Source: Leptolyngbyaceae cyanobacterium clean351 (GTDB taxonomy: Bacteria > Cyanobacteriota > Cyanobacteriia > DAIDHW01). Taken from it: DNA of 64,000 bases. Location: the NCBI GenBank assembly GCA_027451865.1, contig DAIDHW010000001.1, forward strand, positions 905,530 through 969,529, given 5' to 3'. The notes below the pieces were generated by a model. The model saw nothing but the letters and a program-made list of their open reading frames with translations. It was not told where the DNA came from and did no database searches. Below, one piece after another: positions 18,357 through 64,000 of the stretch. Position numbers and translations under genes: made by a program. Within the stretch, counting starts at the first letter, position 1. The number at the start of each line of letters is the position of its first letter.

Positions 18357-18429
18357 CGAGCATGGAGGGATTCGAACCCCCGACCCTCAGGACCGGAACC
18401 TGATGCTCTATCCACTGAGCTACATGCCC
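18357..18429 (-). tRNA. tRNA-Arg (anticodon CCG)
   Basis: Minus-strand 73-nt cloverleaf: acceptor GGGCATG/CATGCTC, D-arm GCTCAGTGGATAGAGC, anticodon loop TTCCGGT, T-loop GGGGGTTCGAATCCCTC; 3' CCA is not encoded. Confidence 0.85.
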
Positions 18430-25000: not shown

Positions 25001-26305
25001 CTAGTTATTCAAGTTTAAAAGGGCCCGCGCCACGCTCTTAACGTCTGGGTAGCGCCGGTCCCAACTGGGATGGGTGAGGTTGTAGACTACTGTAGCCATG
25101 CCAGAACTGATTCCAGGTACCGTGTCTACCGCTAACCGGAGCTCCCGGTCGGCAAACTTATAGAATAGGCTGGGCTGCTGACCGGTAAGCAAATAGACTA
25201 GGGTTGGTCCGAGGGAGTACAGGTCGGAGGCAGGCAGGGGGTTACCTTCCTGTTGTTCGGGAGCCATATAGGCGGGTAGACCAACCTGGGTACCGGTTAG
25301 AGTGGTTGAAACTCCCCCCTGTAACCCTACTAGGGCAACCTCTTGGCCCTCCGGAGGATTGGCGCGTAAGATAATATTGGCAGGGCGGATATCTTGGTGC
25401 AAAACCGGCGGGGATTGGCTGTGTAGGTAGTCGATGATTTCGCACACCCGCAGCATCAACCACACCACCTGGGGTTCAGACCACCTACCCTTTTGGGCCA
25501 CTAACTTTTCCAGGTCATGGCCGTAGACCATCTCCCGCAATAGGTAGGGCTGTTTGTCCGCCCAAAAATAGTCGTGCAGATGGGCAATCCCCCAGTGGTT
25601 CAACCCCTGGAGAATCCTCGCCTCCTGCTCAAGGATGGCTTGGGCGCGGGGGTCATCTGACCATTCGGCGTTGAGGGTTTTGAGCACCCTGCTCTGACCG
25701 TTGAGCCATACTAGGTAGTTGACATTAAGGCTACTGCGCATCAAGGTCTTGAGCACCTGATGGTTAGCAATGGTCTGGCGGGGTTCGAGGGGCTGGCCAC
25801 AGTTGAGGCAGAAACTCAATACATCCCGCCCTGGTAGGTGGTCACAAACCCAAGCTGGAACCTGAGTCTGAAGGAGGGATGGGGAAATTCTAGGGGAGGG
25901 GGCCGGGGTAACCGGGGGAGCTAACTCTGGCTCAGTGCGGTGAACTTCCGAGGGGCGGGGCGGCGGGGCGGGAGTCTGAGTTTCCGCCGCCGGTTTAGAG
26001 CCCTGGGGATTCAAGGAGATTTGCATGCTCGGTCCTGAACGAGCCAGTCTGATTACCATGCCGTCGGTTACTGCCAAGGAGTGGATTTGCTCTCCCTCCA
26101 CGTAGGTACCGTTGGCTCCCAAGTTGACTACCTCCCAGCCCTCCCCCATCCGCCTGACTTCCACATGGGAGCGCGAGACCACAGCACTGTACAGGACCAC
26201 ATGGTTATGGTCAGAGCGACCGATTCGGATCACCGACTCATCGGTAAAGGTCCAATTCTGAACTGGGGTATTCTTCAGGGGGTGTAACAGAGTTAGGGTA
26301 ATCAC
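25001..26305 (-). CDS. FHA domain / zinc-ribbon / protein-kinase-like (probable pseudokinase) protein
   Basis: N-terminal FHA motifs (IRIGRS...SRSHVEV...NGTYVEGE), Pro-rich linker, Cys cluster (CDHL...CLNCG), then kinase-like fold with HQDIRPAN in place of HRDxKxxN, no GxGxxG loop, no DFG, but APE retained. Confidence 0.7.
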   Translation of the reverse strand: MITLTLLHPLKNTPVQNWTFTDESVIRIGRSDHNHVVLYSAVVSRSHVEVRRMGEGWEVVNLGANGTYVEGEQIHSLAVTDGMVIRLARSGPSMQISLNPQGSKPAAETQTPAPPPRPSEVHRTEPELAPPVTPAPSPRISPSLLQTQVPAWVCDHLPGRDVLSFCLNCGQPLEPRQTIANHQVLKTLMRSSLNVNYLVWLNGQSRVLKTLNAEWSDDPRAQAILEQEARILQGLNHWGIAHLHDYFWADKQPYLLREMVYGHDLEKLVAQKGRWSEPQVVWLMLRVCEIIDYLHSQSPPVLHQDIRPANIILRANPPEGQEVALVGLQGGVSTTLTGTQVGLPAYMAPEQQEGNPLPASDLYSLGPTLVYLLTGQQPSLFYKFADRELRLAVDTVPGISSGMATVVYNLTHPSWDRRYPDVKSVARALLNLNN

Positions 26306-31378: not shown

Positions 31379-31461
31379 GAAACCATAACTCTACAACCCT
31401 TGGCAGTTACTAGTCAGGTATTATAGTGCACGTTTCCTGTCTAGCTACCTTCCTAGAGTGA

Positions 31462-31683
31462 CTAATCGTAGACGTAGTGGCCGGGAACCCAGTGACCGTA
31501 GACATAGCGGCCAGGAACCCAGTGCCGACGAGAGTAGCAGTGGCGGGGGACCCAGCGGCCATTGACGTAGTGACCGGAGGTACAGTAGGCAGCCGCATCT
31601 GCTGGGGCAGGTCTCACTAAGGGCGCCATCCCCATAACTCCCACCAGGGCTAGGGCAACAGAAAGTTTTCGCCAAGCGTGCAT
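31462..31683 (-). CDS. small secreted Cys-containing Tyr/Trp/His/Arg-rich protein, paralog of 31863-32153
   Basis: Signal peptide ending PAPADAAA; mature about 41 aa with C-x3-GH...GRWVPRHCY core and internal HWVPG repeats. Confidence 0.45.
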   Translation of the reverse strand: MHAWRKLSVALALVGVMGMAPLVRPAPADAAAYCTSGHYVNGRWVPRHCYSRRHWVPGRYVYGHWVPGHYVYD

Positions 31684-31862
31684 CGGTTCTGACTCCTAAA
31701 GTTTGCGGATTACTATCCCCTTAAGGCCAAGAAGAGGGGGCCCGAGGGTAGAGGATATGCCTCGACTGAGGGCCAGAATACCTGGCCTTAATTGCTTTAC
31801 CTAGCTTAGGGATACCGCGGCAGGAAGGCTGCTTCCCGAAACCGGGCGGACCGGGTCTCTCG

Positions 31863-32153
31863 CTAGTTATTATCAACTAAGTGGTTGACCAGGATGCGCA
31901 CCCCATTGCGGACTACCCAACGAGCCGGGAACCAGTTGCGGTCATCGTTATAGTAGGGATGATCCCAACGCCAGTCCGCTCCCGCGTTGTAGAAGTCGTA
32001 GTAGCAGTGCCTCGGGATCCAAACCCGGCCAGGGCCAAAGTGCCCCGGCACACAGGTGTCGGCAGCCGCCGGAGCAGGGTTAACGAAGGGAGCGATACCA
32101 AGAGTGGCACCAATTAAAGAAAGGGAAACAGCAATTTTTTTCCAGTTATTCAT
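31863..32153 (-). CDS. small secreted Cys-containing aromatic-rich protein, paralog of 31462-31683
   Basis: Signal peptide ending PAPAAA; shares C-x-PGH...GR-W-(V/I)-PRHCY with its neighbour. Confidence 0.45.
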   Translation of the reverse strand: MNNWKKIAVSLSLIGATLGIAPFVNPAPAAADTCVPGHFGPGRVWIPRHCYYDFYNAGADWRWDHPYYNDDRNWFPARWVVRNGVRILVNHLVDNN

Positions 32154-32236
32154 GGTCTCACCATCCCCGTAGGGTGTACGCTAAACTATTTGACTAGTTT
32201 CCCAACTTGGGAGTTCAATGGGACCCGACCCTAGCT

Positions 32237-52465: not shown

Positions 52466-53266
52466 CTAGACCGGGGGGGCTGACTTTAGATCAATGGTCA
52501 GCTCTGGCCGTGGAAAATTATCGACAGTGACCAGAACCACTGTAATGTTATCCTTCCCCCCCTTTTCCTTAGCAGCGTTGACTAGGGAAGCCACTGCTTT
52601 TTCACTGGCACGAATACTCTTGAGGTAAGAGGCAATAGTTTGGTCAGAAAGCTCCTCTGTTAATCCATCACTGCACAACAATAGGCGGTCGGCTGGATGC
52701 AGGTCCAGACGTTGGATCGTGACTTCGGCCAAGTCTTCGCGTCCTAAACATTGGGAGAGAACGTGCCGCCAAGGGTGCGTGCGTGCCTGGTCAGCTGTCA
52801 TCTCCCCGGTGCGCATCGCCTGGGCTACCCAGGTGTGGTCCTCCGTCAACTGCTCTAAATCATAGCCCCGGAGACGGTACAGGCGCGAGTCCCCCACGTG
52901 GGCACACCATACCTCCTCTACTTTATCGCCCTCAGGCAGAGTCTCTTCTCGGAACAGCAGCACGACGATGGTCGTACCCATGTCGGAGCGTTCGGGATGC
53001 TGTTGCTGGTCCTTGACTATTTCTCGGTTGGCTAGTACCAAAGCTGCCCGGAGCATCTGGGGGGAGGTCAAGTCCGAGTCCCAGTGCTCATTCAGGTGAG
53101 CTTGAATCGCCTGGGTAGCAATTCTACTGGCTTCCTGACCCCCAGCATGGCCCCCCATGCCGTCGGCAACTATGAAAAAGCGGCCGTGTGGGTCGATATA
53201 ATAGTAATCTTGATTGGATGACCGCAGCAGACCCGGATCAGTGAGGCCCGTAAAAAAACACTTCAT
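52466..53266 (-). CDS. PP2C-family Ser/Thr protein phosphatase
   Basis: PPM motifs ([29 protein letters not shown]). Confidence 0.85.
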
Positions 53267-53310
53267 CGATGGTTACAAGGCGGACAACTTGAATAAACCC
53301 AATCTATTTC

Positions 53311-55074
53311 CTAGGACATACGCTCTAGACGACCCAGGCGTACTATCAATCGCAGAAGAGCCAAACCCACCATCCCCAATCCTGCTAGGGCAAATAATGC
53401 TAACCAGACGTGGTGATTAACATAAAGGATAACTGATGATAACATTAGGGCGGCACCAAAAATAGTATAGTTGGTGCCGACTTGCAGGGTGCCCAGTCGT
53501 CTCAACAGTCGGTCGCTTTCCGTTGACCGCGTCCTTAGGCGCAGGTCTCCGCGCTCCAGTTTCTCGAGGGTGGTTTCGATCCGCCGCGGTAATCCTAGGG
53601 CTGAGGTGCTCACTTGGGCTGCCTGCCGTCCCAGATCTCCCAATAAGCTCCCGCCATCAGGGTTTTTGTTACTACTCATAAATTGTAGGGCGAAAGGCTG
53701 TGCCACTTCCATGAAGTTGAATTTCGGGTCTAGTCCCTTCCCCACCCCCTCCAAGGTGGAAAAGGCACGCATGACGAAAGTGAAAGTAGCCGGGAAGCGA
53801 AAGGGTTGGTCGTAGGCAATCTCGTAGAGGTCATCACTGATGGCGGCCACGGATTGCTGCTCAAAGGGCTTGTCCATCAGGTTATCCATAATGTACTGCA
53901 CAGAACGGCGGACCGGCCCCAGGTCTTCTACCTCAGCTAGGGCACCTAGGTCGATGAGGGTCAGAACTACCCTATCCCCGTCTTTCTGAGCAATGCTAAA
54001 GAGCAGGTCGGTTAGTTTTTGGCGGGTAATGGGGGATATCCGCCCCATCATGCCGAAATCATAAAAAATCAATTCCCCCTGGGGAGTAACAGCTAGGTTG
54101 CCGGGATGGGGGTCAGCATGGAAAAAGCCATGGTGCAGAAGCTGATGCAGGTAGGCCTCGGCACCCAATTTAGCCAGGCGGCTGCGGTCAAGGCCAGCGG
54201 CCTCTAGGGCTTCGTTATGGCTAATTTTAATCCCAGGCAGGTATTCCAAGGTCAGTACCCGGGGAGAGGTGTAACGCCAGTAGACTCGAGGCACAACCAC
54301 CCAGTCAAGACTACGAAAGTTACGCCTAAAGGTATCGGCATTACTGCCTTCCTTGAGGTAATCAATCTCCTCGTAGAGGATCCGACAACACTCCTCGTAA
54401 ATCCCCAGCCAGTCCCGCCCCCGGCCCCAGTAGGGATGCCCCTGAAAATAGCCGGCGATGCTCCGCAGAATTGCCAAGTCAATCTCAAAGAGCTTGCGCA
54501 ATCCCGGCCGCTGGACCTTGACTACCACCTCTTCGTGAGAATGCAGGCGGGCCCGGTGGACTTGGCCGAGACTCGCAGCCGCGAGGGGCACAGGATCAAT
54601 ACTGGCAAAGGACTCTTCCCCACCTTTGCCTAGGTCTTGGTTAAGAATCGCCCTGACTTGTTCATAGCTAAAGGCAGGCACCTTATCCTGCAGCTTGGAT
54701 AGCTCCTCTACGTACTCGCTAGGAAACAGATCGGCGCGAGTAGAGAACAGTTGTCCTACCTTGATGAAGGTGGGCCCTAAATCCAAGATGGTCTCTCGAA
54801 TCCAGATGGCCTGAGCTCGGCGACGGGCATTGCGTTTAGCATCTGTCATGCCTCCCCAATAACTCCAGGACTTGTTGTTCAGCCAGAGGGAGAACAGCAA
54901 GGTCAAGACGAAGGTCCAGATGTCCAGGAACCGGCGCTCTCGGGAGTATTTCTCCCGGTTCCAGCGGTAGTTTTTCCGTGGGCGGACAGGCTTCTGGGGT
55001 GCACCACCACAGTTCACTTGAACTTCCAAGCCAGGGGGAGAGGAGGGGTAACGAGCATCAGGGATGGCAGACAC
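53311..55074 (-). CDS. ABC1/UbiB-family atypical kinase
   Basis: ABC1 signature (IASASLGQVHRA, HADPHPGN); C-terminal hydrophobic helices. Confidence 0.8.
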   Translation of the reverse strand: MSAIPDARYPSSPPGLEVQVNCGGAPQKPVRPRKNYRWNREKYSRERRFLDIWTFVLTLLFSLWLNNKSWSYWGGMTDAKRNARRRAQAIWIRETILDLGPTFIKVGQLFSTRADLFPSEYVEELSKLQDKVPAFSYEQVRAILNQDLGKGGEESFASIDPVPLAAASLGQVHRARLHSHEEVVVKVQRPGLRKLFEIDLAILRSIAGYFQGHPYWGRGRDWLGIYEECCRILYEEIDYLKEGSNADTFRRNFRSLDWVVVPRVYWRYTSPRVLTLEYLPGIKISHNEALEAAGLDRSRLAKLGAEAYLHQLLHHGFFHADPHPGNLAVTPQGELIFYDFGMMGRISPITRQKLTDLLFSIAQKDGDRVVLTLIDLGALAEVEDLGPVRRSVQYIMDNLMDKPFEQQSVAAISDDLYEIAYDQPFRFPATFTFVMRAFSTLEGVGKGLDPKFNFMEVAQPFALQFMSSNKNPDGGSLLGDLGRQAAQVSTSALGLPRRIETTLEKLERGDLRLRTRSTESDRLLRRLGTLQVGTNYTIFGAALMLSSVILYVNHHVWLALFALAGLGMVGLALLRLIVRLGRLERMS

Positions 55075-55111
55075 TGAATTTCCTGCAGAACAGACCTAAA
55101 TAGTACTAGCC

Positions 55112-55408
55112 CTAATAGTTCTTTAGTTCGGCTCTTAGCCGGGCAACTTCGGCGCGCAGGTCATCTAAGGTGGCCTGCAGGTCGGCGGTGGGACTATGCC
55201 ATGGCTGTGGCTGAGCAACAGTATCATCCATCGAACTCTCGGCACGTTCCTGGACTTGGAGAATAAACTCGTGCAGCCACTCGCGCTGTTCAGCATCAAA
55301 CCTGCCTAGTCCACTGAGGCATTGGACTAGGGCATTTTCTAATTGTTCGTTAAGGGTTTCAGCAAAGCTTCTGCCTAGAAAAAAGGCGTGGACGGGAGAT
55401 TTGTTCAT
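55112..55408 (-). CDS. hypothetical protein
   Basis: 98-aa helical ORF with coiled-coil-like C-terminus. Confidence 0.4.
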   Translation of the reverse strand: MNKSPVHAFFLGRSFAETLNEQLENALVQCLSGLGRFDAEQREWLHEFILQVQERAESSMDDTVAQPQPWHSPTADLQATLDDLRAEVARLRAELKNY

Positions 55409-55453
55409 GGCAAACTTTGCATATCTTTACTGGGATTATAACCTAGCCAGGCC

Positions 55454-56539
55454 CTAGGGAGATGGGCTGGTGACAGTCACTGGCCAGTTGGGTTGCGGGG
55501 GAAAACTCTGGTCGTGGCGAAACATAGGCAGGGCAGTCAAAATGCCTAACCGCAGACCTAGGCCTAGGGCCGCACCCAGGAAACCAGCCCAAAAAGAGAT
55601 GTACAGCAAGCTCCGGGGAGCTGGATGGGGCCCTGAGGAGGAGTGACTAGGGGACATGGGCTTCGCTTTACCTTGGTTTTTACTGGGTTTGGCGGGTCGG
55701 GTCTCCGGGCGCACCAGGGGCGGGGGAGCCATCTCGGGCAACAGCTCCAACCAAGCCTGCACAGTTTGGGGCCGAGCATCCGCCTCGATTTCCAGGCCTC
55801 GCAGGATTGCCACTTCAAGGGCGGGCGGAACCTCTGGAGACCATTGCTTGAGACTGGGCAAGCGCACTCGGTTACGGAGGGGAGCCGCCACTGGGGAATT
55901 ACCACCCAGGAGAAAGTAAAGGGTGGCAGCTAAGGAGTAAACGTCGGTGGCAGGGCTGAGACGACTCTGGGGTAAGTATTGCTCTAGGGGAGCATAACCA
56001 TCGGTGAAGATGCCCGTCTGGACCTGCTCGGCGTGGATAGACTGCTCACGGGCGATGCCAAAGTCAATTAGTACTACTGAGTTAGTGCCTTGACGGCGAA
56101 TTATATTTTGGGGTTTAACATCTCGGTGTAGCAGCCCCTGACCATGGACGGCCACCAAAGCCCGGCCAATCTGACGGATGTACTGGAGAGCTAGAGAAGG
56201 AGCTAGGGGCTGCTTAGGACTGACGACCTCGTCTAGGGTTTGGCCAGGAACATAGTCCATGACCATAAATAATCCCCCATCCTCTTCAAAAAAGTCTAGG
56301 ACCCTGACAATGTGAGGATGTTGGCAGCGGGCCAGGTGGCGAGCTTCCCGTAAAAAGCGCTGGCGGAGGTTTTTCAGGTCCAGACCAGTGGCAAGGTTAG
56401 GCTGGAGAGTCTTGATCACCACAGGCTGGTCCAAGTACATGTGGGAGGCCTGGTAGGTGACCCCAAATCCTCCTTGCCCTAAGACCTTTTGCAGGATGTA
56501 CTTGTTACCCTGAAGTATTTGCCCGGCGGCTAGCTGCAT
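55454..56539 (-). CDS. Hanks-type Ser/Thr protein kinase with C-terminal membrane anchor
   Basis: GQGGFG loop, VVIK, HRDVKPQN, DFG, APE; Pro-rich linker and C-terminal hydrophobic helix. Confidence 0.85.
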   Translation of the reverse strand: MQLAAGQILQGNKYILQKVLGQGGFGVTYQASHMYLDQPVVIKTLQPNLATGLDLKNLRQRFLREARHLARCQHPHIVRVLDFFEEDGGLFMVMDYVPGQTLDEVVSPKQPLAPSLALQYIRQIGRALVAVHGQGLLHRDVKPQNIIRRQGTNSVVLIDFGIAREQSIHAEQVQTGIFTDGYAPLEQYLPQSRLSPATDVYSLAATLYFLLGGNSPVAAPLRNRVRLPSLKQWSPEVPPALEVAILRGLEIEADARPQTVQAWLELLPEMAPPPLVRPETRPAKPSKNQGKAKPMSPSHSSSGPHPAPRSLLYISFWAGFLGAALGLGLRLGILTALPMFRHDQSFPPQPNWPVTVTSPSP

Positions 56540-56583
56540 AGGTTCAGCTTAACTTTGCAGCCATATTAGCAGAAATTTCTTAC

Positions 56584-57924
56584 CTAAGGTTTTGGGGGAG
56601 GAAAGTGGCTACGCACAAAGGAAATGGCCTCAGTACGCCCTTGTACCTCGCCGTCCAAGGTTGCCCCGAGGAGCACCTCGAGAATTTCCCTGAATTGAGG
56701 GCCAGGCTGGTAGCCCAATTCTAGTAGGTCCTGGCCAGTTAAGGGGGGAGGAGTCTGAGACCAGATGGTTAGGTAGTTCCAGACCCACCGCCGGACTGGT
56801 CCCGGGTTTCTGAGGGTCACTAGGTGCAAGACCGACCGACTCCACCCCTTGAACAGAACCACCGCCTGACTAGGAGTCAGCCAAGACCCCAGGTGATTGA
56901 CCAGTTGGGCTTCGGCGGCTGCTAAATCCTCCAGGTGACGGAGGCTTTCCTGGGGTAAGTGGAGAGCTAGGGCAGCCTCAGCCCGGGCGGTGGTGGCCAG
57001 CTGGGCCAGGATAACCTCCAGGCGACCCGGCCAAGGGGGTAAGGCACAACGGTTGGCTAACCTCAGTTGTCGCTGCAGGCTAGTACTCCAAATCAGGTCA
57101 GGATGGATACAAGCCAAGGCCCCCAACTGGGCGAGCTGATTGAGGGCGGCGAGCCACTGGCGATTGGTGGTCATGGTCAGCAGGCACTCTAGTTCCATCC
57201 CCAGGCGGCTGCCTAGACCCGGGGGTCGTGACCCGGGCCCGGCTCGGTGAAGGAGCTGGCGGTAAAACTGGCTGGCCTGCCGCATTAGGGATTGATCGGT
57301 AACAGTAATAGCAAAGCCCAAGCGGCAGCTAAACCTCACCCCGCGATAGATTCGGGTGGGGTCCTCAATGAAGCTGCCCGGGTGGAGGGCGCGAATCACA
57401 TGGTTATGCAGGTCCTCCAACCCGCCATGGAGGTCAATCAATTCCCCAGGGTGGGGCGAGGTAAGGCAGATTGCCAAGGCATTGATCGTAAAGTCGCGCC
57501 GGTACAGGTCTAGGGCTAGGGTACTCGGCTCGACCTGGGGATTGGCAGCTGGGTAGGGATAGGACTCCCGGCGGGCAGTAGTTAGATCGAGGGCTAAGGG
57601 AGTCGGCTGATGCCAAGCCAGGGTAGCAGTCTGAAATTCCCGGTACACCTGCAACCGAGAGGTCGGGTCTTGCTGATGGAGAGCCTGGGCCAAGGCAATG
57701 GCGGGAGGCAAGCCCTCTAAGGGGGGGCCCTCAACAGTTAGATCCAAGTCCTGTTTGAGGTCTATTCCCAGTAACAGGTCCCGTACCGCCCCCCCGACTA
57801 GGTACACCTGCCATCCCCGAGACTCAGCTAAGGAGGCAACCTGCCTCAGCAGTCCCTGAGCCGAGGGAGACAGGGCCTGGCCAAGCTGCAGCAAGAGGTT
57901 TTGCTTCAAGGTAACCCGGCCCAT
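56584..57924 (-). CDS. tRNA nucleotidyltransferase (CCA-adding enzyme) / poly(A) polymerase family
   Basis: Head-domain motif LVGGAVRDLLLG...DLDL. Confidence 0.75.
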   Translation of the reverse strand: MGRVTLKQNLLLQLGQALSPSAQGLLRQVASLAESRGWQVYLVGGAVRDLLLGIDLKQDLDLTVEGPPLEGLPPAIALAQALHQQDPTSRLQVYREFQTATLAWHQPTPLALDLTTARRESYPYPAANPQVEPSTLALDLYRRDFTINALAICLTSPHPGELIDLHGGLEDLHNHVIRALHPGSFIEDPTRIYRGVRFSCRLGFAITVTDQSLMRQASQFYRQLLHRAGPGSRPPGLGSRLGMELECLLTMTTNRQWLAALNQLAQLGALACIHPDLIWSTSLQRQLRLANRCALPPWPGRLEVILAQLATTARAEAALALHLPQESLRHLEDLAAAEAQLVNHLGSWLTPSQAVVLFKGWSRSVLHLVTLRNPGPVRRWVWNYLTIWSQTPPPLTGQDLLELGYQPGPQFREILEVLLGATLDGEVQGRTEAISFVRSHFPPPKP

Positions 57925-58021
57925 TTTTCGCTAATTTCCCCAAGAGATTCTGATAATCTAGGCTTAGGACTGGTCGCAAGCCCGGGGTCTAGTCCATTGA
58001 AAACTACCTGCAGCAAAACAA

Positions 58022-58213
58022 ATGTTAACAATTGCCTTTCAAGTTTGCCTAACTGCCCTAGTGTTATTGTCCTTCCTAATGGTGATCGGCGTACCGGTAG
58101 CCTACGCCACTCCCCAAAACTGGAACCAATCTAAGAGCTTAATGCTCCTGGGGTCCCTTCTTTGGGTGGTTTTAGTAGTTTTGGTGGGTGTACTGAACTT
58201 TTCTGTGGTCTGA
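58022..58213 (+). CDS. psbZ: photosystem II reaction centre protein Z
   Basis: 62-63-aa two-helix protein with the conserved PsbZ core [13 protein letters not shown] ... VGVLNF. Confidence 0.85.
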
Positions 58214-58225
58214 GTATTAGGCTGC

Positions 58226-58774
58226 ATGACAGTTTTTGAAGGTAATTTCAGTAATACTGAGCATCTCCACCTGGCAGTTGTCATTGGTAGATTCAATGAC
58301 CTAATCACCAATAAGCTTTTGAGCGGTTGCCAAGACTGTCTTAAGCGCCATGGAGTAGACCCTGACCCCCAGGGTGACCAGGTAGATTATGTCTGGGTAC
58401 CGGGGAGCTTCGAAATCCCCCTAGTGGCTCGTCAGCTAGCCCTTACAGGCAACTATGATGCGGTCATTTGTCTGGGAGCTGTAATCCGTGGTCAAACCCC
58501 CCACTTTGACTACGTGGCTGCAGAAGTAGCCAAGGGGGTGGCAGCAGCTAGTTTTCAGACCGGCGTACCGGTAGTGTTCGGGGTCTTGACCACAGACACT
58601 TTACAGCAAGCCCTAGAGCGGGCGGGCATCAAGGCTAATCACGGTTGGGACTACGCCATGAATGCCCTGGAGATGGCCAGTTTAATGAGACAGTTGCGGG
58701 GCACCCTCAGATCTCCCCAGGCGGCCCTAGTCCCGGGGGCCGCCACTCCCCTACTAGACCCCTCCGCCGTTTGA
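58226..58774 (+). CDS. ribH: 6,7-dimethyl-8-ribityllumazine synthase
   Basis: Lumazine synthase motifs ([30 protein letters not shown]). Confidence 0.9.
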
Positions 58775-58786
58775 GCTCATAGGGGC

Positions 58787-60316
58787 TTAGAGGCGTCGGG
58801 AAAGCAGGCGGTAGATCAACAGAAAAAGCGCCATGGTCACTAGGGACCCGAGGGCGAGAATCACGCCGCCTGTAGCAATAACCATGCTGGCGTCAACTAA
58901 GCCGTGGAGGGCAAATGCCGCCCTCACCTGGGGGATAAAAGCCACTACTGTAGTGCTCACTACTGCCACTACAACTAGGTCGAATCGCTCGATCAGCTGG
59001 CGGGCTTGAACACCGATTAAAACTACTAACAGGAGGAGCCAAGCCCCCACCGCCCCTAGGGTTGGTCCAAGCAGGCTCACCAGTAAAATCAGAAGCACTC
59101 CCCCCTCAAAACCAGTAAACAAGGCCGAATTCAGTAACCTCAGGGCTGGGAGGTGGCGGGGGGGTTGACGGACTGGGGCCGGCCGGGCTGGGGTGGGAGT
59201 GCCCAAGGCTTGGGTAGGCGGCACAGGACTGGCAACGGCGGGGGGCTTACCGCCGGGTAGGACTTGGGTGGGGGGAACGGCAGGGACCGGTTTGGCGGCT
59301 GGTCCGGCCGGCGGAGCTGGCAGGGTGGGGGGGAGAGGCTGGTTGGGGCCTGGCCGGGTTGAGGCTGGAGATTCCCGCAGTAGCTTCAAAATGACCTCGG
59401 CGGAGGAGGGGCGGTTTCGGGGAGACTGGGAAAGCATCAGGTCTAGAAGTTTCGCCAGGCGCTGGCTGACCTGGGGGGCGTAGGGGCGCCAATTCCAGCA
59501 GTTGCGATTCCCGTCGTAGAGTTGCTCTGGCTGCTGCCCGGTCAAGAGCATCACACAGGTGGCCGCTAGGGCGTACAGGTCCGTGGTGGGAGATACCGCC
59601 GCCCCTAGCATCTGTTCGGGGGGGGCAAACCCCGGGGAGTAGATCTCCGTTGACCGGCCTGAGCTGGTGCCCTGGGTAATCTTTTTTACGGCCCCAAAGT
59701 CCAGCAAAAAAAAATGGCCATCCTGCCGGCGCATAATGTTAGAGGGCTTGACATCCCGATGAATGGTGCCCTGACTGTGGACGAACTGGAGAATCTCCAA
59801 GACGCTTTCTAGGACCTCTAGAACTTGGGCCTCAGAAAACTTCCCCTGGGCCGCCAACTCCTGCTCTAGGGTTAGGCCATCAATAAACTCTTGCACCAAA
59901 TAGAAATACTCTTCCGTTACCCCGGGTCGGGAGCTAGGGACCGTGAGGGGAAAGAAGGCCAAAAGTTCCGGAATGTGACGGTTTTGTTTGCCTAGCTGGG
60001 CAAGCACCTCTCCCTCCCGCTCAAACAAGTCCTTAGCCTTGGCTAGTTGTTCTGGTCCAAGGCTCACCGCCGGCTGGAACTGTTTTACCACACAGGTGCT
60101 CAGATTTGGCATTCGTCGGTCTAGGGCCAAGAAAGCCGCCCCAAACCCCCCCCGCCCCAGGAGTTTTTGGGGCAGGTAGCGGCCATCGAGAATCAGGACC
60201 ATGCCGCAACTAGTGCAGAATTTCTGGGTTACCCCCCGCAGGGCAGCCGGCTCATCTAAGTCTGGGCAGGAGTTTTGGGGATGCTGGCAACCGGGACGGG
60301 TACAGTGGATAAGCAT
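58787..60316 (-). CDS. Hanks-type Ser/Thr protein kinase with N-terminal zinc ribbon and C-terminal membrane region
   Basis: N-terminal Cys cluster (CTRPGC...CTSCG), GRGGFG, VVKQ, HRDVKPSN, DFG, APE; Pro-rich linker, C-terminal hydrophobic helices. Confidence 0.85.
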   Translation of the reverse strand: MLIHCTRPGCQHPQNSCPDLDEPAALRGVTQKFCTSCGMVLILDGRYLPQKLLGRGGFGAAFLALDRRMPNLSTCVVKQFQPAVSLGPEQLAKAKDLFEREGEVLAQLGKQNRHIPELLAFFPLTVPSSRPGVTEEYFYLVQEFIDGLTLEQELAAQGKFSEAQVLEVLESVLEILQFVHSQGTIHRDVKPSNIMRRQDGHFFLLDFGAVKKITQGTSSGRSTEIYSPGFAPPEQMLGAAVSPTTDLYALAATCVMLLTGQQPEQLYDGNRNCWNWRPYAPQVSQRLAKLLDLMLSQSPRNRPSSAEVILKLLRESPASTRPGPNQPLPPTLPAPPAGPAAKPVPAVPPTQVLPGGKPPAVASPVPPTQALGTPTPARPAPVRQPPRHLPALRLLNSALFTGFEGGVLLILLVSLLGPTLGAVGAWLLLLVVLIGVQARQLIERFDLVVVAVVSTTVVAFIPQVRAAFALHGLVDASMVIATGGVILALGSLVTMALFLLIYRLLSRRL

Positions 60317-60326
60317 GACAGAAGCC

Positions 60327-60480
60327 TAGTCTAGGTCTACAGACTTGGGAGCACTCTTGAGGGGCAGAGAGGGGATGGACTCAAAGGCGGGGGAAACCAG
60401 AGGTAATATTTCTCGGGCGAAAGCCTCAGCAGCACGATAACGACCGGCACTACAAATATAAATCACTAGGAGGATGCGCT
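60327..60480 (-). pseudogene. 3' fragment of a LysR-type regulator gene (duplication remnant)
   Basis: Minus-strand translation gives ...[34 protein letters not shown], near-identical to the C-terminus of the LysR gene at 63189; no upstream coding body. Confidence 0.4.
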
Positions 60481-60629
60481 TGATTCTGAGCTCAGAATCA
60501 AATCTAATAGAGTTACAGGCAAAGCCCTATTATCGCCAATAGAGAAAGTAGCACAAGAGCATCACTCATCCTATAAAGCCCGCCAGCAGGATCACCAGGC
60601 TCAGGAGAAAACCCGTCCGCGCGACCCAC

Positions 60630-61620
60630 CTCCTGTTGGGCCGGGCAACTCTCAAGTTATAGGGACTCAACTCCCTCCTTCGAGTGTGGGCGCGTGCCAA
60701 GTTGTTTTGTGTCTTTGCCCAATCTGTTGGGTAGGCATCGTGAGTGAAGACTTGCAGGACCGATTCATAGAGTTTTATTGCCCGTTCTAGATTCTCGGCC
60801 CGAGCGCCCCGAGTCCTTTCAGGGATTCAACTCCCTCCTTCGAGTGTAGGCGCGTGCCAAGTTGTTTTGTGTCTTTGCCCAATCTGTTGGGTAGACATCG
60901 TGAGTGAAGACTTGCAAGGCCGATTCATAGAGTTTTATTGCCCGTTCTAGATTCTCGGCCCGAGCGCCCCGAGTCCTTTCAAAGTAAGCATTTGCTCAGT
61001 GGTTTTGTGTTTTTGCCCAATCTGTTGGGAAGGCATCGCGAGTGAAGACTTGCAACGGCAATTGATGGAGTCGGACCGCCTGTTCATGGTTCTCGGCCTG
61101 ATCGCCCCGGATCCGGTTATAGTAAGCCATTGCTAAATAATTTTGGGTCTTGGCCCAGTCTGTTGGGAAGGCATCACTAGTTCTCACTTGCAAGGCCGAC
61201 TTATAGAGTTGGATTGCCTGCTCCAGATTCTCAGCCCGATCACCCAGGAGCTGATTAAAGTAGGCAAGTGCCAAGCTGTTTTGGGTCCTTGCCCACTCTT
61301 CCGGGAAGGCATCACGAGTAAAGACTTGCAGGGCCAATTTAGAAGCCTCAATTGCCTGCTCCAGATTCTCAGCCCGGTCACCCCGGAGCCGATAACAGTA
61401 GACATTGGCCAGGCCATATTGTGTTCTTGCCCACTCTTCCGGCAAGGCATCGCGAGTAAAGACTTGCAGGGCCAATTCATAGGCCTCAACCGCCTGCTCC
61501 AGATTCTCAGCCCGCTCGCCCTGGATCCGGTTAAAGTAGGCAAATCCCAAGTTATTTTGGGTTTTTGCCCACTCTTCCGGCAAGGCAACACGGTTTATAT
61601 TTCGCAGCGCCGATTTATAG
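60630..61620. repeat. tandem repeat array, about 120-160 bp period, encoding TPR-like 40-aa units
   Basis: Copies at 60661-60820 and 60821-60980 differ at about 5 of 160 positions; further, progressively divergent units continue to about 61620. Confidence 0.6.
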
Positions 61621-62551
61621 GTTTAGATCGCCCATTCCCACTTCTCTACCTGGTTGCTCCCGATTTGGGTAGGTGGTTTTTGCAGGGCAGAATCCCCCCC
61701 CAGGGCCTGGAGCACCTCCTGGGCCCGTTGGTAGCGCTGCTCTGTAGCGGCCATCAGCAGGCGGTCAAGGACTTGCCCGAAGGAAGGAGAAACAGGGATA
61801 GGGAGGAAATCTCGCCACACCCACTTACCCTTAAGGGAGGAGTACAGGTCAAAGGGCTGCACTCCCGTGAGCAGGTGGATGCAGGTGACCCCCAGGACGT
61901 AGAGGTCGCTGGCGTAGACGGGCTTACCCCGCAGTTGCTCCGGGGCCGCGTAGTCGGCGGTGCCAATAACGGTACCGGTTTTAGCCAGCTGGTGGGGGTC
62001 GACCTGACAGAAGGCGCCAAAATCCACCAGCATGTAGGTGTGACTGCCGGCGCGCCGCATGATGTTGTCTGGTTTAATGTCCCGATGAATCACCTGGTGG
62101 TCGTGGACAAATGCCAACACCGGCAGGATGTTTTCTAGCAGTTGCCGGGTCTGGTCCGCGGACCAGGGCCCCTGACTGGCGAGGGCCTCACTCAAGTTCT
62201 GGCCATCAACAAACTCCTGGACTAGGTACAGGTGCTGGTCTTGGTAAAAGTAGGACAGCAGGGCAGGGATCTGGGGGTGAGCTCCGAGGGAAGCTAGTTG
62301 CTGAGCCTCCTGCTCAAATAGTTCAGCTGCCTTTTGCCGGTTGCCACTCTGGGGTAGGACTTGCTTGATGACACAGCGCTGCTGGTGGGGATGGTCCTGG
62401 TCTACGGCCAAGACCGGCCGAAGCCCCTCAACCAGAGGGGCTTGAGGGCCCGGTAGCGCTCCTGCAGGAGCAGTTTGGCGCCGCAGTGGGGGCAGAAGTT
62501 GGCAGTCCCGCCCAACTGGGGTCTAGGACAGGCGGGGTTTAAACAGTACAT
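60996..62551 (-). pseudogene. disrupted Ser/Thr kinase-TPR-repeat gene
   Basis: Zinc-ribbon N-terminus (MYCLNPACP...CPHCG from 62551) runs into a stop; kinase domain (HRDIKPDN, DFG, APE) continues in another frame from about 62411; in-frame TAA at 61623-61625 separates it from the TPR repeats. Confidence 0.5.
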
Positions 62552-63039
62552 CCCCACGGGATAAAGATACTAAGGGTTTACTTAAACATAATCTTAGAGC
62601 AGAATTTTTGCGGCCCAGCATACAATACAGGTATTTTATAATAGATAGTTTTAGTTTACTAAAAAATTACAACCTAGTGGAGAGTCTCAAGCTGATAATA
62701 GGGGGACATGAAAGAATTCAAAAGGTGAAAGAAAAGACTGGGGACACTCGTGGTCAGGAAATCTGTTCTGGTTATTTAACGGCTTGTCCGGACGACTCAG
62801 CTGTCAAGTTATTTTGGGTTGTTGCCCAAGCAGACCGACAGGAAGATTCCCATGACCAATCGAAGCCCTAAGGGGAATACCACGCTAACCCCGGCTGTCT
62901 CTATGATGTAGACTGAGTCACCGCCGTTCAAATGGCTAGCATCATTTGGCATCACATATAATTTTTGTAACTTTGAGTTGCCAGAATGATCGAGAATAAC
63001 GGAAACCACCACGGTGGTCACCATGGCTGGGATTATTTA

Positions 63040-63188
63040 GATGCAAGTGTCCTCAACCAGGATCGCGCCGCAGCTGGTACAGAGCTTTTGGGCCATCCCC
63101 GCAGGGTAGCCGGGTCATCTAGGTCCGGGCAGGAGTTTTGGGGATGCTGGCAACCGGGACGGGTGCAGTTAATAAGCACGACGGAAGC
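63040..63188 (-). pseudogene. 5' fragment of a zinc-ribbon Ser/Thr kinase gene (duplication remnant)
   Basis: Minus-strand translation VLINCTRPGCQHPQNSCPDLDDPATLRG... matches the N-terminus of the kinase at 58787-60316, then frameshifts and terminates. Confidence 0.4.
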
Positions 63189-64000
63189 CTAGTCTAGGTC
63201 TACCGACTTGGGAGCACTCTTAAGTGGCGGGGAGGGGATGGACTCAAAGGTGGGGGAGAACAGCGGTAGTATTTCCCGGGCGAAAGCCTCAGCCGCCTTG
63301 GAACGATAACGATTGGCATTATAAATCACGGAGAGGATGCGCTTGACGGCAATATCCTCAATCCTAGCCCGGTGTAATATGCCACTATCGAGCTCCTTTT
63401 CAATCGCCGACACAGAAACAAAAGCAGCGCCTAGCCCAGCCTGGACAGCATTTTTAATCGCTTCAATTGAATTTAACTCCATTTCTATTTGCAGGCGACG
63501 GCCATCAATCCCACAGGTGGTCAAGGCCTGGTCGATCACCTTGCGGATCGTGGACTGAGCATCTAGGGCAATGAATTGCAACCGGTATAAGTCTTCCTTC
63601 AGGATGCACTCGGTTTGGGCCAAGGGGTGGGTTACCGGCAAAATTAATGCTAATTCGTCCTCGGCATAGGGAATAATTTCTATAGAGTCCTGGAGTTCTG
63701 TAGGTACTTCCCCCCCAATGACAGCAAGGTCGATCTGCCCATTGGCGACACTCCAGGAGGTCCGCCGGGTCGAGTGGACGTGCAGTTGCACCGCCACCTC
63801 TGGGTAACGTTGACGGAAAGCGCCAATCATCCTAGGCAACAGGTAGGTTCCCGTGGTCTGACTGGCACCAACAATCAGGGTCCCCCCCTGGAGATTTTGC
63901 AGGTCTTCGATCGCCCGACAGGTTTCCGCGCACAGGGTGAGGATTTTGTCTCCGTAACTAAGTAGTAGGTGGCCTGCCTCTGTCAGTTGTGCCCGTCGGC
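63189..64000 (-). CDS. LysR-family transcriptional regulator (5' end beyond window)
   Basis: Substrate-binding domain with [15 protein letters not shown] hinge motif; frame stays open upstream of 63839 through the window end (…[11 protein letters not shown]). Confidence 0.75.

Follow-up and report, generated by a model that had tools for sequence, protein, structure and literature searches.

[quoted passage not shown] The gene described here lies on the minus strand at 62551-60566 of the window, by which we mean the whole stretch of 64,000 nucleotides that was analysed. It combines a 4-Cys prefix, a Ser/Thr kinase and TPR units, and it carries four lesions. Like the Cys-rich-prefix Ser/Thr kinases (NCBIfam NF045510; compare SpkB), it has a CxxC...CxxC arrangement directly before the kinase domain and the catalytic motifs are present; it differs from them in its destroyed glycine-rich loop and broken frame, and SpkB is used here for comparison and not as an assignment to an orthologous group. 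The kinase half has an intact counterpart in P0015, a Ser/Thr kinase of 635 aa that combines a 4-Cys prefix with a WD40 propeller at the C-terminus and is very probably the paralogue of that half in the same genome. We consider it likely that 62551-60566 represents a lineage-specific kinase paralogue, carried within an insert, that once worked, was recently inactivated and is now a pseudogene.

Reading frames, domains and lesions of the kinase-TPR gene

The coordinates of the gene were verified by codon-by-codon reading and three-frame translation. It starts at ATG 62551-62549, opens with MYCLNPACPRPQ...CPHCG...RGFGRSWP and terminates at TAG 62404-62402. This first reading-frame piece (62402-62551, minus strand) comprises the 4-Cys prefix, which is zinc-ribbon-like and has its cysteines at C3..C8 and C21..C24 in MYCLNPACP...FCPHCG, and a degraded glycine-rich loop. 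The NCBIfam model NF045510 (4Cys_prefix_kin) scores 36.2 bits at the extreme N-terminus, against a cut-off of 24. Coding resumes in the -1 frame from around 62411 (LAVDQDHPHQQRCVIKQ...). A preliminary description of this DNA had rightly observed that the minus-strand kinase N-terminus meets a stop and that the domain continues in another frame, and had proposed a 1-nt indel near 62412; alignment with P0015 reveals instead that 4 nt are missing, giving a net shift of -1. At the frameshift site (62405-62416, minus strand) the window reads CGGTCTTGGCC where P0015 has GFGRTFLAVDQD, encoding R-T-F-L-A. The local sequence contains no homopolymer or short repeat, and the loss adjoins four amino-acid replacements.

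The Hanks-type Ser/Thr kinase catalytic domain occupies 61626-62411 (minus strand) and matches Pfam Pkinase (PF00069) at 125.6 bits, above the curated cut-off of 31.7 (E 2.9e-36). The catalytic motifs VIKQ, HRDIKPDN, VDFGA and AAPEQ are all found in the translation. The glycine-rich loop reads WLRGFGRS, not GxGxxG, and is followed by the frameshift and the TAG; no uninterrupted ORF joins it to the catalytic core. The intact relatives have (QG)GFGRTF in P0015 and GxGGFG in 119 relatives, among which the first glycine of the loop is 100% conserved. Given the lack of an in-frame GxGxxG, we take the window sequence to be a kinase-derived pseudogene rather than a kinase. The kinase and the TPR units are separated by an in-frame TAA nonsense codon at 61623-61625 (minus strand), as had been proposed earlier; codon-by-codon reading gives EKWEWAI-stop-TYKSAL and places the codon in the cap helix with which the TPR array begins. 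An antisense ORF (61143-62138, plus strand, 331 aa) overlies the kinase/TPR sequence; it matches no family and was treated as a shadow ORF of this G+C-rich sequence.

The TPR_10/TPR_12-type array (60882-61650, minus strand) consists of the cap helix and five 138-bp (46-aa) units of the form WAxTQNNLGxAY..RAENLEQAI..Y..ALQV. The five 46-aa units are full ones. PF13374 (TPR_10) matches at 50 bits (cut-off 27.5, E 2.6e-13), and TPR_12 scores 27.0, slightly under its cut-off of 30.1. The third lesion, TGA 60996-60998, sits in unit 5 and reads TQNH-stop-ANAY, in agreement with the stop previously noted at 60996. Tandem Repeats Finder (TRF) reports a period of 138 bp (46 aa) with 5.3 copies and 76% matches over 60855-61587. 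The repeats had been described as 40-aa TPR-like elements and as variable units of 120-160 bp; we find instead a fixed 138-bp period and one separate 160-bp tandem duplication (60661-60980, minus strand; TRF period 160, 2.0 copies, 96%), which spans the greater part of unit 5, some of unit 6 and 7 codons of the tail. The two copies, 60661-60820 and 60821-60980, are identical at 155 of 160 positions (96.9%), matching the figure of about 97% given before. All five differences are transitions, four of them non-synonymous and one synonymous, a pattern compatible with neutrality as far as five sites can show. The suggestion that these copies reflect recent expansion or conversion is borne out as far as a recent tandem duplication is concerned, and not as the addition of a 138-bp array unit. 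The 160-bp duplication does not keep step with the 138-bp period, and its length is not divisible by 3; it therefore does not derive from in-register unequal exchange. The duplication breaks the frame, and an extra TGA (60819-60821) arises at its junction, which completes the fourth lesion. Other than those at this locus, there are no long repeats in the 64-kb window.

The original C-terminal tail (60566-60660, minus strand), which ends in ...RRRELSPYNLRVARPNRRWVARTGFLLSLVILLAGFIG before its stop and has a hydrophobic stretch at its end, can be read solely in the frame used by the second of the two 160-bp copies. It forms part of ORF 60566-60700, and the gene terminates at the stop of that ORF, TGA 60566-60568, and not at 60630 as first thought. 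The ancestral product would have begun with the 4-Cys prefix and the kinase domain, followed by a linker and six 46-aa TPR units, and would have ended in a short hydrophobic tail. Upstream of the gene is an A+T-richer stretch (62552-63051, minus strand; GC 0.44-0.47), presumably its old promoter region; searches for promoters and terminators gave nothing over the shuffled expectation. The stretch contains an orphan 24-nt TPR fragment, WATTQNNL (62805-62828), which matches repeat unit 1 at 23 of 24 positions (blastn-short E 7e-6), and an ORF (62809-63024) that has no match in Pfam or NCBIfam. Altogether, four independent lesions of three kinds, together with a glycine-rich loop that is degraded here and intact in P0015 and the wider family, favour the pseudogene reading of the preliminary description.

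Insertion between a LysR gene and a membrane-kinase gene

The gene sits inside a 2.57-kb insert bounded by direct repeats (J) of around 295 bp that are 85-90% identical. Their spacing is 2863 and they are 90% identical over a 200-nt core; when aligned, the copies agree at 247 of 290 positions (43/290 differ) and show 3 indels. The J repeats are a duplicate of the junction between a LysR gene and a membrane-kinase gene. The LysR-type regulator gene (63189-64000, minus strand; Pfam LysR_substrate 1.3e-40; stop TAG 63189-63191) is intact within the window and extends past the window end, and its last 159 bp fall within the upstream J copy. That copy (63052-63347, minus strand) consists of the LysR 3′ end, here the functional one, then 9 nt of spacer and a dead 5′ stub of the membrane kinase. 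The stub comprises the first ~125 nt of the gene (63179-~63055); GTG stands where ATG would be and 1 nt is deleted, and the stub translates as MLINCTRPGCQHPQNSCPDLDD... before running into a frameshift. The downstream J copy (60188-60484, minus strand) has the opposite composition: a dead LysR 3′ relic (60326-60484, with two indels and a translation ending in ...KSVDLD before its stop), followed by the 9-nt spacer and, for the membrane kinase, the functional 5′ end. The 9-nt gap between LysR and kinase has been retained in both copies.

The membrane kinase itself (58787-60316, minus strand) is intact, with a 4-Cys prefix and a hydrophobic C-terminal half (Pfam Pkinase 7.3e-32; NF045510 2.6e-10). 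Full-length orthologues around 50% identical are found across cyanobacteria and lie directly 3′ of LysR in L081-L084. In three distant cyanobacteria LysR and the orthologous membrane kinase are directly adjacent in this order, with gaps of 7, 11 and 231 nt. The membrane kinase is a conserved partner of the LysR gene, and the insert has split this pair. Through the duplication of the 295-bp junction, both flanking genes would have kept complete ends, and the membrane kinase its native translation start region.

We considered a mobile element (IS, transposon or integrative element) and rejected it, as the scanned ORFs of 60484-63051 contain no recombinase-like domain and no tRNA is nearby; the sole RNA detected by Rfam in the 64-kb window is one tRNA at 18357-18429. 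No inverted repeats are present in the 64-kb window. The flanking duplication is made of 295 bp of host genes, unlike a short target-site duplication.

Kinship with P0015 and proposed history of the locus

Over residues 1-305, P0015 and the kinase half of the broken gene are 84% (BLASTP) or 80% (tblastn) identical; taken by piece (tblastn), the identity is 79% over residues 1-48 and 80% over residues 46-305. Derived residues, for example DQDHPHQQ, set the two apart from the remainder of the family. P0015 differs in being intact and in having the WD40 propeller, whereas the window gene has a TPR array of 46-aa period, a hydrophobic tail and four breaks. The likeness breaks off in the linker, past which there are TPR units in one and WD40 in the other. 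A tblastn search of the 64-kb window did not find the P0015 gene. P0015 is recorded on a contig of 1,202,744 bp, a length that recurs for each of the window proteins looked up, and its placement in the same genome rests on this agreement. The C-termini of this kinase family vary, being WD40 (L001, L003, P0192), GUN4, classical TPR (P0241) or absent; the TPR of P0241 is of the 34-aa kind, whereas that of the window gene is of the 46-aa TPR_10/12 kind. Among the matches listed, none is an intact protein that joins a 4-Cys kinase to TPR units of 46 aa. When a genome collection was scanned with the kinase half, the best among the matches listed was 48% identical, and the nearest kinases there were kinase-WD40 proteins. 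No second strain or close relative was found in the collections searched, the window proteins examined being singletons at 90% identity, and two metagenome scans with degenerate patterns encoding CQHPQNSCPD and DQDHPHQQRCVIKQ gave zero matches.

In a relative-rate test of the window copy and P0015 against 119 outgroup kinases, 11.3 changes were specific to the window copy and 9.6 to P0015 (chi-square 0.05, P 0.83), at ~21 informative sites with an outgroup 54-59% identical and with 30 further differences not polarisable. Omitting the glycine-rich loop gave 8.3 against 9.6. For a copy neutral from birth, in which a ratio of 3:1 to 4:1 is expected, P lies at 0.02-0.004. At the columns for which outgroup conservation reached 90% or more, 29 and 31 deviations were counted, mostly shared, a result that is uninformative because the outgroup is tight and belongs to a different subfamily. 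The absence of acceleration suggests that the copy was probably functional during most of its history and died recently.

The 160-bp copies, with 5/160 positions different, can be set beside the flanking J repeats, with 43/290 different and 3 indels, as a basis for dating the death as recent. We note that the J repeats could have been divergent from the outset if the incoming DNA came from another strain, in which case the dating is weaker. As a rough estimate of tempo, divergence would be ~1.6% per lineage since the 160-bp duplication; this predicts about one nonsense codon per 1.8 kb, and two are observed.

We envisage the following course of events. An ancestral kinase gene would have been duplicated, one daughter being the intact kinase-WD40 P0015. 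In the other daughter the WD40 propeller would have been swapped for a TPR array, with a linker breakpoint near 61641-61650. The gene and ~490 bp of upstream DNA would then have been placed between LysR and the membrane kinase, duplicating the 295-bp junction. Function would have been lost much later, and neutral drift would have introduced the 4-nt deletion in the glycine-rich loop, the two nonsense substitutions and the out-of-frame 160-bp duplication, the latter by slippage.

It is also conceivable, if unlikely, that there never was a working gene and that the insertion itself stitched together a P0015-derived kinase 5′ half, an array derived from a TPR/CHAT protein and other scraps. The locus is indeed rich in fragments (the kinase 5′ stub, the LysR 3′ relic, the orphan TPR piece at 62805-62828), the abrupt end of the P0015 likeness in the linker would fit such an origin, and so would the lack of an intact 4-Cys kinase with 46-aa TPR units among the matches listed. 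The rate test speaks against it, since the pseudogene branch has no excess of changes and neutrality since the split is disfavoured. Every catalytic motif except the glycine-rich loop is intact, the TPR array opens with a cap helix as natural arrays do (P0067) and not at an arbitrary point, and the open-frame pieces are long for drift as old as the 15%-diverged flanking repeats.

A once-working paralogue that has recently decayed thus remains our preferred reading. Its present role is most likely none; at most it would be a passenger between LysR and the membrane kinase. A more far-reaching reading, which we regard as speculative and improbable, is that the locus may record a kinase gaining a new sensor domain and a new genomic address: a swap of WD40 for TPR, duplicative entry into a conserved LysR-kinase operon (by template switch or single-crossover integration) and a possibly transcribed 2.9-kb spacer that would uncouple the membrane kinase from LysR.

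Other readings and comparison with known systems

It is very unlikely that the split gene is still of use, with a kinase ORF of 262 aa (61623-62411) and a TPR ORF of 195 aa (60996-61583) acting as separate working proteins. Each of the two ORFs is long and could start at a TTG, and the catalytic motifs of the kinase are intact. The kinase ORF is carried in a public protein collection as the called protein P0128, so one or more gene callers regard it as a gene. It begins, however, past the glycine-rich loop and strands beta1-beta2, and thus has no ATP-clamping element, which is invariant in the 119 relatives. The TPR ORF could in principle fold alone, yet it is cut by the TGA within a unit and followed by an out-of-frame duplicate. 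The four non-synonymous changes to one synonymous between the 160-bp copies and the lack of any promoter-like site likewise argue against two working proteins.

That the gene is intact in the organism, and that the frameshift, stops and duplication are errors of sequencing or assembly, seems scarcely credible. A single short indel of this kind would be a common type of error, but here there are four independent lesions of three kinds, two of which are base substitutions that create stop codons. At the frameshift, 4 nt are lost from non-repetitive sequence beside four replaced amino acids, and the five differences between the 160-bp copies are not expected from a collapse or expansion artefact. 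The flanking relics have decayed too. Elsewhere in the window genes are densely packed and long ORFs are intact (stop-free stretches of 120 codons or more make up 87% of the window, and the neighbouring genes are unbroken). The repeat-driven variable locus offered in the preliminary description as the alternative to a pseudogene, a contingency locus at which the array would drive frequent, selectable changes of copy number or frame (phase or antigenic-type variation), is just as hard to credit: the array of 138-bp repeats does include one very recent duplication, but the units are just 76% alike and a poor substrate for frequent recombination, that duplication is 160 bp long, off register and out of frame, the frameshift has no simple-sequence tract, the machinery is of a cytoplasmic signalling type and the other lesions are irreversible.

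The locus can finally be compared with several described systems. PADLOC profiles for PD-T4-6, a single-gene kinase anti-phage defence, match the kinase domain at 1e-92, and mad6 profiles match as well. A defence system (PADLOC PD-T4-6, mad6) was rejected, as the neighbourhood is housekeeping in character with no defence island, and the membrane kinase next door matches PD-T4-6 equally (1e-87). Because this conserved kinase matches equally well, the match reflects general kinase similarity. The NCBIfam MADS6 and BREX PglW matches were far under their cut-offs.

The TPR array resembles those of the cyanobacterial TPR/CHAT proteins P0012 and P0067, at 58-64% identity, with the 46-aa unit RIRGERAENLEQAIAAYEQALQV.TR.A.P..WA.TQNNLGNAY and a similar opening cap helix. 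In proteins of that type the N-terminal modules are different or CHAT domains are present, and the units, 8-12 in number, are nearly uniform, whereas the window gene has six more divergent units after a kinase, with changes that break helices or the consensus (for example LHQLPLQV and TQYGLANVY).

The locus is probably an ordinary pseudogene and opens no new question. The 262-aa and 195-aa ORFs are best annotated as parts of a single pseudogene, not as genes. The locus provides a clean small example of the modular C-termini of cyanobacterial Ser/Thr kinases, and it also exemplifies an insertion that preserves its neighbours by junction duplication, and the tempo of pseudogene decay. Like pseudogenes that arise by decay of a redundant paralogue, it carries more than one independent disabling mutation and has an intact paralogue, very probably within the same genome; the five substitutions since the last duplication would fit a lack of codon-position bias. 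All that distinguishes it from ordinary decayed paralogues is that a duplicated junction of 295 bp encloses the insertion.

Reading frames, lesions and repeat arrays

The reading frame opens with an ATG at 62551 on the minus strand (MYCLNPACPRPQLGGTANFCPHCGAKLLLQERYRALKPLWLRGFGRSWP) and ends at a TAG at 62404–62402. The kinase domain (LAVDQDHPHQQRCVIKQ...HRDIKPDN...DFG...APE...) resumes in the −1 frame and stays open as far as an in-frame TAA, at 61623–61625; the TPR units follow in the same frame as the kinase to a TGA at 60996–60998, and beyond it to a TGA at 60819–60821. The first 50 codons match the 4-Cys prefix domain of cyanobacterial kinases (NCBIfam NF045510, above cut-off), 61623–62411 matches Pkinase (Pfam, 2.9e-36) and 60996–61583 matches TPR_10 (Pfam, 2.6e-13). 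Without the 160-bp duplicate described below, the frame runs into a 38-aa tail with a hydrophobic end and stops at 60566–60568, not at 60630 as first proposed. From these domain matches and the restored frame, the original product would have been about 608 aa long, comprising the 4-Cys prefix, kinase, linker, cap helix, six TPR units (the last partial) and tail. The tail (60566–60660, minus strand) has a hydrophobic final stretch of 16 residues, TGFLLSLVILLAGFIG, hinting that the protein may once have been tail-anchored in the membrane.

The matched domains and four lesions bear out the preliminary description of a decaying kinase–TPR gene. The glycine-rich loop reads WLRGFGRS, against QGGFGRTF in the closest relative, the glycine being invariant in 119 relatives. 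Directly past the loop, CGGTCTTGGCC occupies the place of the expected R-T-F-L-A, and the absence of four nucleotides shifts the frame; the suspected frameshift near 62412 is real but is not a simple 1-nt indel. The local sequence at this site holds no homopolymer and no short repeat. Both stops placed between the gene pieces are present, the TAA in the cap helix (EKWEWAI*TYKSAL) and the TGA at 60996 in unit 5 (TQNH*ANAY). The junction of the 160-bp duplication (CCC T|GA AAG) is itself a stop codon.

Tandem Repeats Finder located a 138-bp array at 60855–61587 (5.3 copies, 76% matches) and a 160-bp array at 60661–60981 (2.0 copies, 96% matches). The repeat unit is thus 46 aa, not 40, and the supposed "120–160 bp units" resolve into one regular array and one separate duplication. 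The 160-bp copies (60661–60820 and 60821–60980) had been put at about 97% identity and agree at 155/160 positions. The remaining five positions show transitions throughout; four of these are non-synonymous and the fifth is synonymous, a ratio that, at n = 5, appears roughly that of unconstrained DNA. As 160 bp is a multiple of neither 3 nor 138, the duplication did not come from in-register exchange between units. These arrays and the direct repeat J are the sole long repeats found in the 64-kb window. A small 30-bp tandem repeat (31467–31524; 1.9 copies, 89% matches) lies in a gap of about 800 bp without a long ORF (31391–32197).

It is unlikely that the pieces persist as two split genes of use: the 262-aa ORF at 61623–62411 (minus strand) is listed as a called protein (P0128, NCBI source) in a public collection, but this kinase ORF has no ATP loop. 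The pseudogene piece has thus probably been annotated or predicted as a gene. On the plus strand, a 331-aa open frame (61143–62138) runs antisense to the kinase/TPR sequence; it matches no family and can almost certainly be dismissed as a shadow ORF in G+C-rich coding DNA. Assembly error in a gene that is really intact is also improbable, given four lesions of three kinds, duplicate 160-bp copies that differ from each other, relics on both flanks that have decayed too, and a remaining window that is gene-dense and intact. The earlier suggestion of a contingency locus driven by repeats is unsupported, as the units are 76% alike, the 160-bp duplication is out of register and no simple tract marks the frameshift.

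Relatives and functional history

When the repaired full-length sequence was searched against 5.8 billion proteins, most matches were cyanobacterial TPR and CHAT proteins with the 46-aa unit (50–63% identity). The outlying kinase match, P0015 (635 aa, 84% identity across the kinase half), combines a 4-Cys-prefix kinase and a WD40 propeller. Similarity to it covers P0015 residues 1 to about 305, the end falling at window 61641, in the linker just ahead of the TPR cap helix. P0015 is not encoded within the window; it and each window protein looked up are singletons at 90% identity, and all are assigned to an NCBI contig of one length, 1,202,744 bp. P0015 is thus very probably a paralogue, still intact, encoded at another site in this genome. 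The next-closest kinases share 54–59% identity; the majority carry no extra domain, and some have GUN4, WD40 (P0192) or classical 34-aa TPRs (P0241). Kinase–WD40 proteins in Chlorogloea and Aulosira are more distant relatives. Among the matches listed in the protein searches, none was an intact orthologue joining this kinase to a 46-aa TPR array, and the collections searched contained no close sequenced relative of the source organism.

A copy neutral since the split is expected to show several-fold more changes than its constrained sister. In a relative-rate test, differences between the dead copy and P0015 were polarised with 119 outgroup kinases, giving on average 11.3 changes on the dead-copy branch and 9.6 on that of P0015 (8.3 and 9.6 without the glycine-rich loop cluster). 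The rates do not differ (chi-square 0.05, P 0.83), on only about 21 informative sites with a distant outgroup and 30 differences unpolarised; for a neutral copy, with an expected ratio of 3:1 to 4:1, the P value of the split seen is 0.02 to 0.004. With no excess of changes on its branch, we conclude with moderate confidence that the kinase–TPR gene was functional over most of the period after the split and was inactivated recently. A consistency check, which is rough arithmetic and not measurement, assumes that about 4% of random substitutions make a stop: judged by the 160-bp copies, each lineage has changed by about 1.6% since duplication, or about 29 substitutions over 1.8 kb, predicting about one nonsense codon versus two seen.

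Insertion at a LysR–kinase junction

The gene lies between two direct copies of J (minus strand; 63347–63052 and 60484–60188), spaced 2863 bp apart and sharing 89.5% identity across a 200-nt core (247/290 aligned bases overall, with three indels). Each comprises the last 159 bp of a LysR gene, a 9-nt spacer retained in both, and the first ~125 nt of a membrane kinase gene. The upstream copy supplies the working LysR end, and its kinase start is a dead stub in which GTG replaces ATG and 1 nt is deleted. The downstream copy shows the converse: its LysR end is a relic carrying two indels, and its kinase start is the working one of the intact gene at 58787–60316. An orthologous kinase (~50% identity) sits directly 3′ of LysR in three distant cyanobacterial genomes (gaps of 7, 11 and 231 nt), so the 2.57 kb between the J copies is a lineage-specific insertion into a conserved gene pair. 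In the comparison loci (L081 4995–7512, L082 4970–7497, L083/L084 4759–7509), the kinase immediately after the LysR-type regulator is ~500 aa long and has a 4-Cys prefix and a hydrophobic C-terminal half. This conservation suggests an operon, the pair probably being co-transcribed. The opposite strand upstream of it in L081–L084 carries a Fer2 gene plus one without annotation.

The insert ORFs scanned yielded no domain of a transposase or integrase, and neither inverted repeats nor a tRNA near the insert was found. Two stretches, of 490 bp (A+T-richer) and 82 bp, have no assigned origin. The former holds an orphan 24-nt TPR fragment (62805–62828, minus strand; TGGGCAACAACCCAAAATAACTTG, WATTQNNL; 23/24 identical to unit 1), about 255 nt upstream of the ATG and reading ...SAWATTQNNLTAESSGQAVK*; it may be what remains of a lost TPR gene's 3′ end, or a scar left by a circular intermediate. 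Divergence between the J copies is about five times that between the 160-bp copies. On this measure the insertion far predates the last lesion, provided that the incoming copy had not diverged beforehand.

We propose that an ancestral kinase gene was duplicated, that one copy exchanged its C-terminal domain within the linker (WD40 to TPR), and that this copy was then placed duplicatively at the LysR/kinase junction. Placement may have occurred by a single crossover that integrated a J-carrying circular piece, by a replication template switch with re-entry 295 bp upstream of the exit, or by insertion after J had undergone a small tandem duplication. The event would have been tolerated because the duplicated junction preserved the LysR 3′ end as well as the membrane-kinase start with its adjacent upstream sequence. 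A long functional period would have preceded loss of function and a short neutral decay.

Phospho-signalling genes are abundant in the window (52466–60316 and 25001–26305), all intact: a PP2C phosphatase (52466–53266), an ABC1 kinase (53311–55074), a Ser/Thr kinase (55454–56539), the membrane kinase (58787–60316) and an FHA-domain kinase (25001–26305). PsbZ (58022–58213) and the 4-Cys-prefix kinases mark the organism as a cyanobacterium. A defence-kinase reading was rejected, the PADLOC matches being unspecific and the conserved neighbouring kinase matching equally well.

The dead gene can serve annotation work and makes a small case study. Judged by its sequence, it belongs to known families and is an ordinary, unsurprising pseudogene whose history is well preserved; fusions of a kinase with TPR or WD repeats are long-known architectures in cyanobacteria (PMC1262709).
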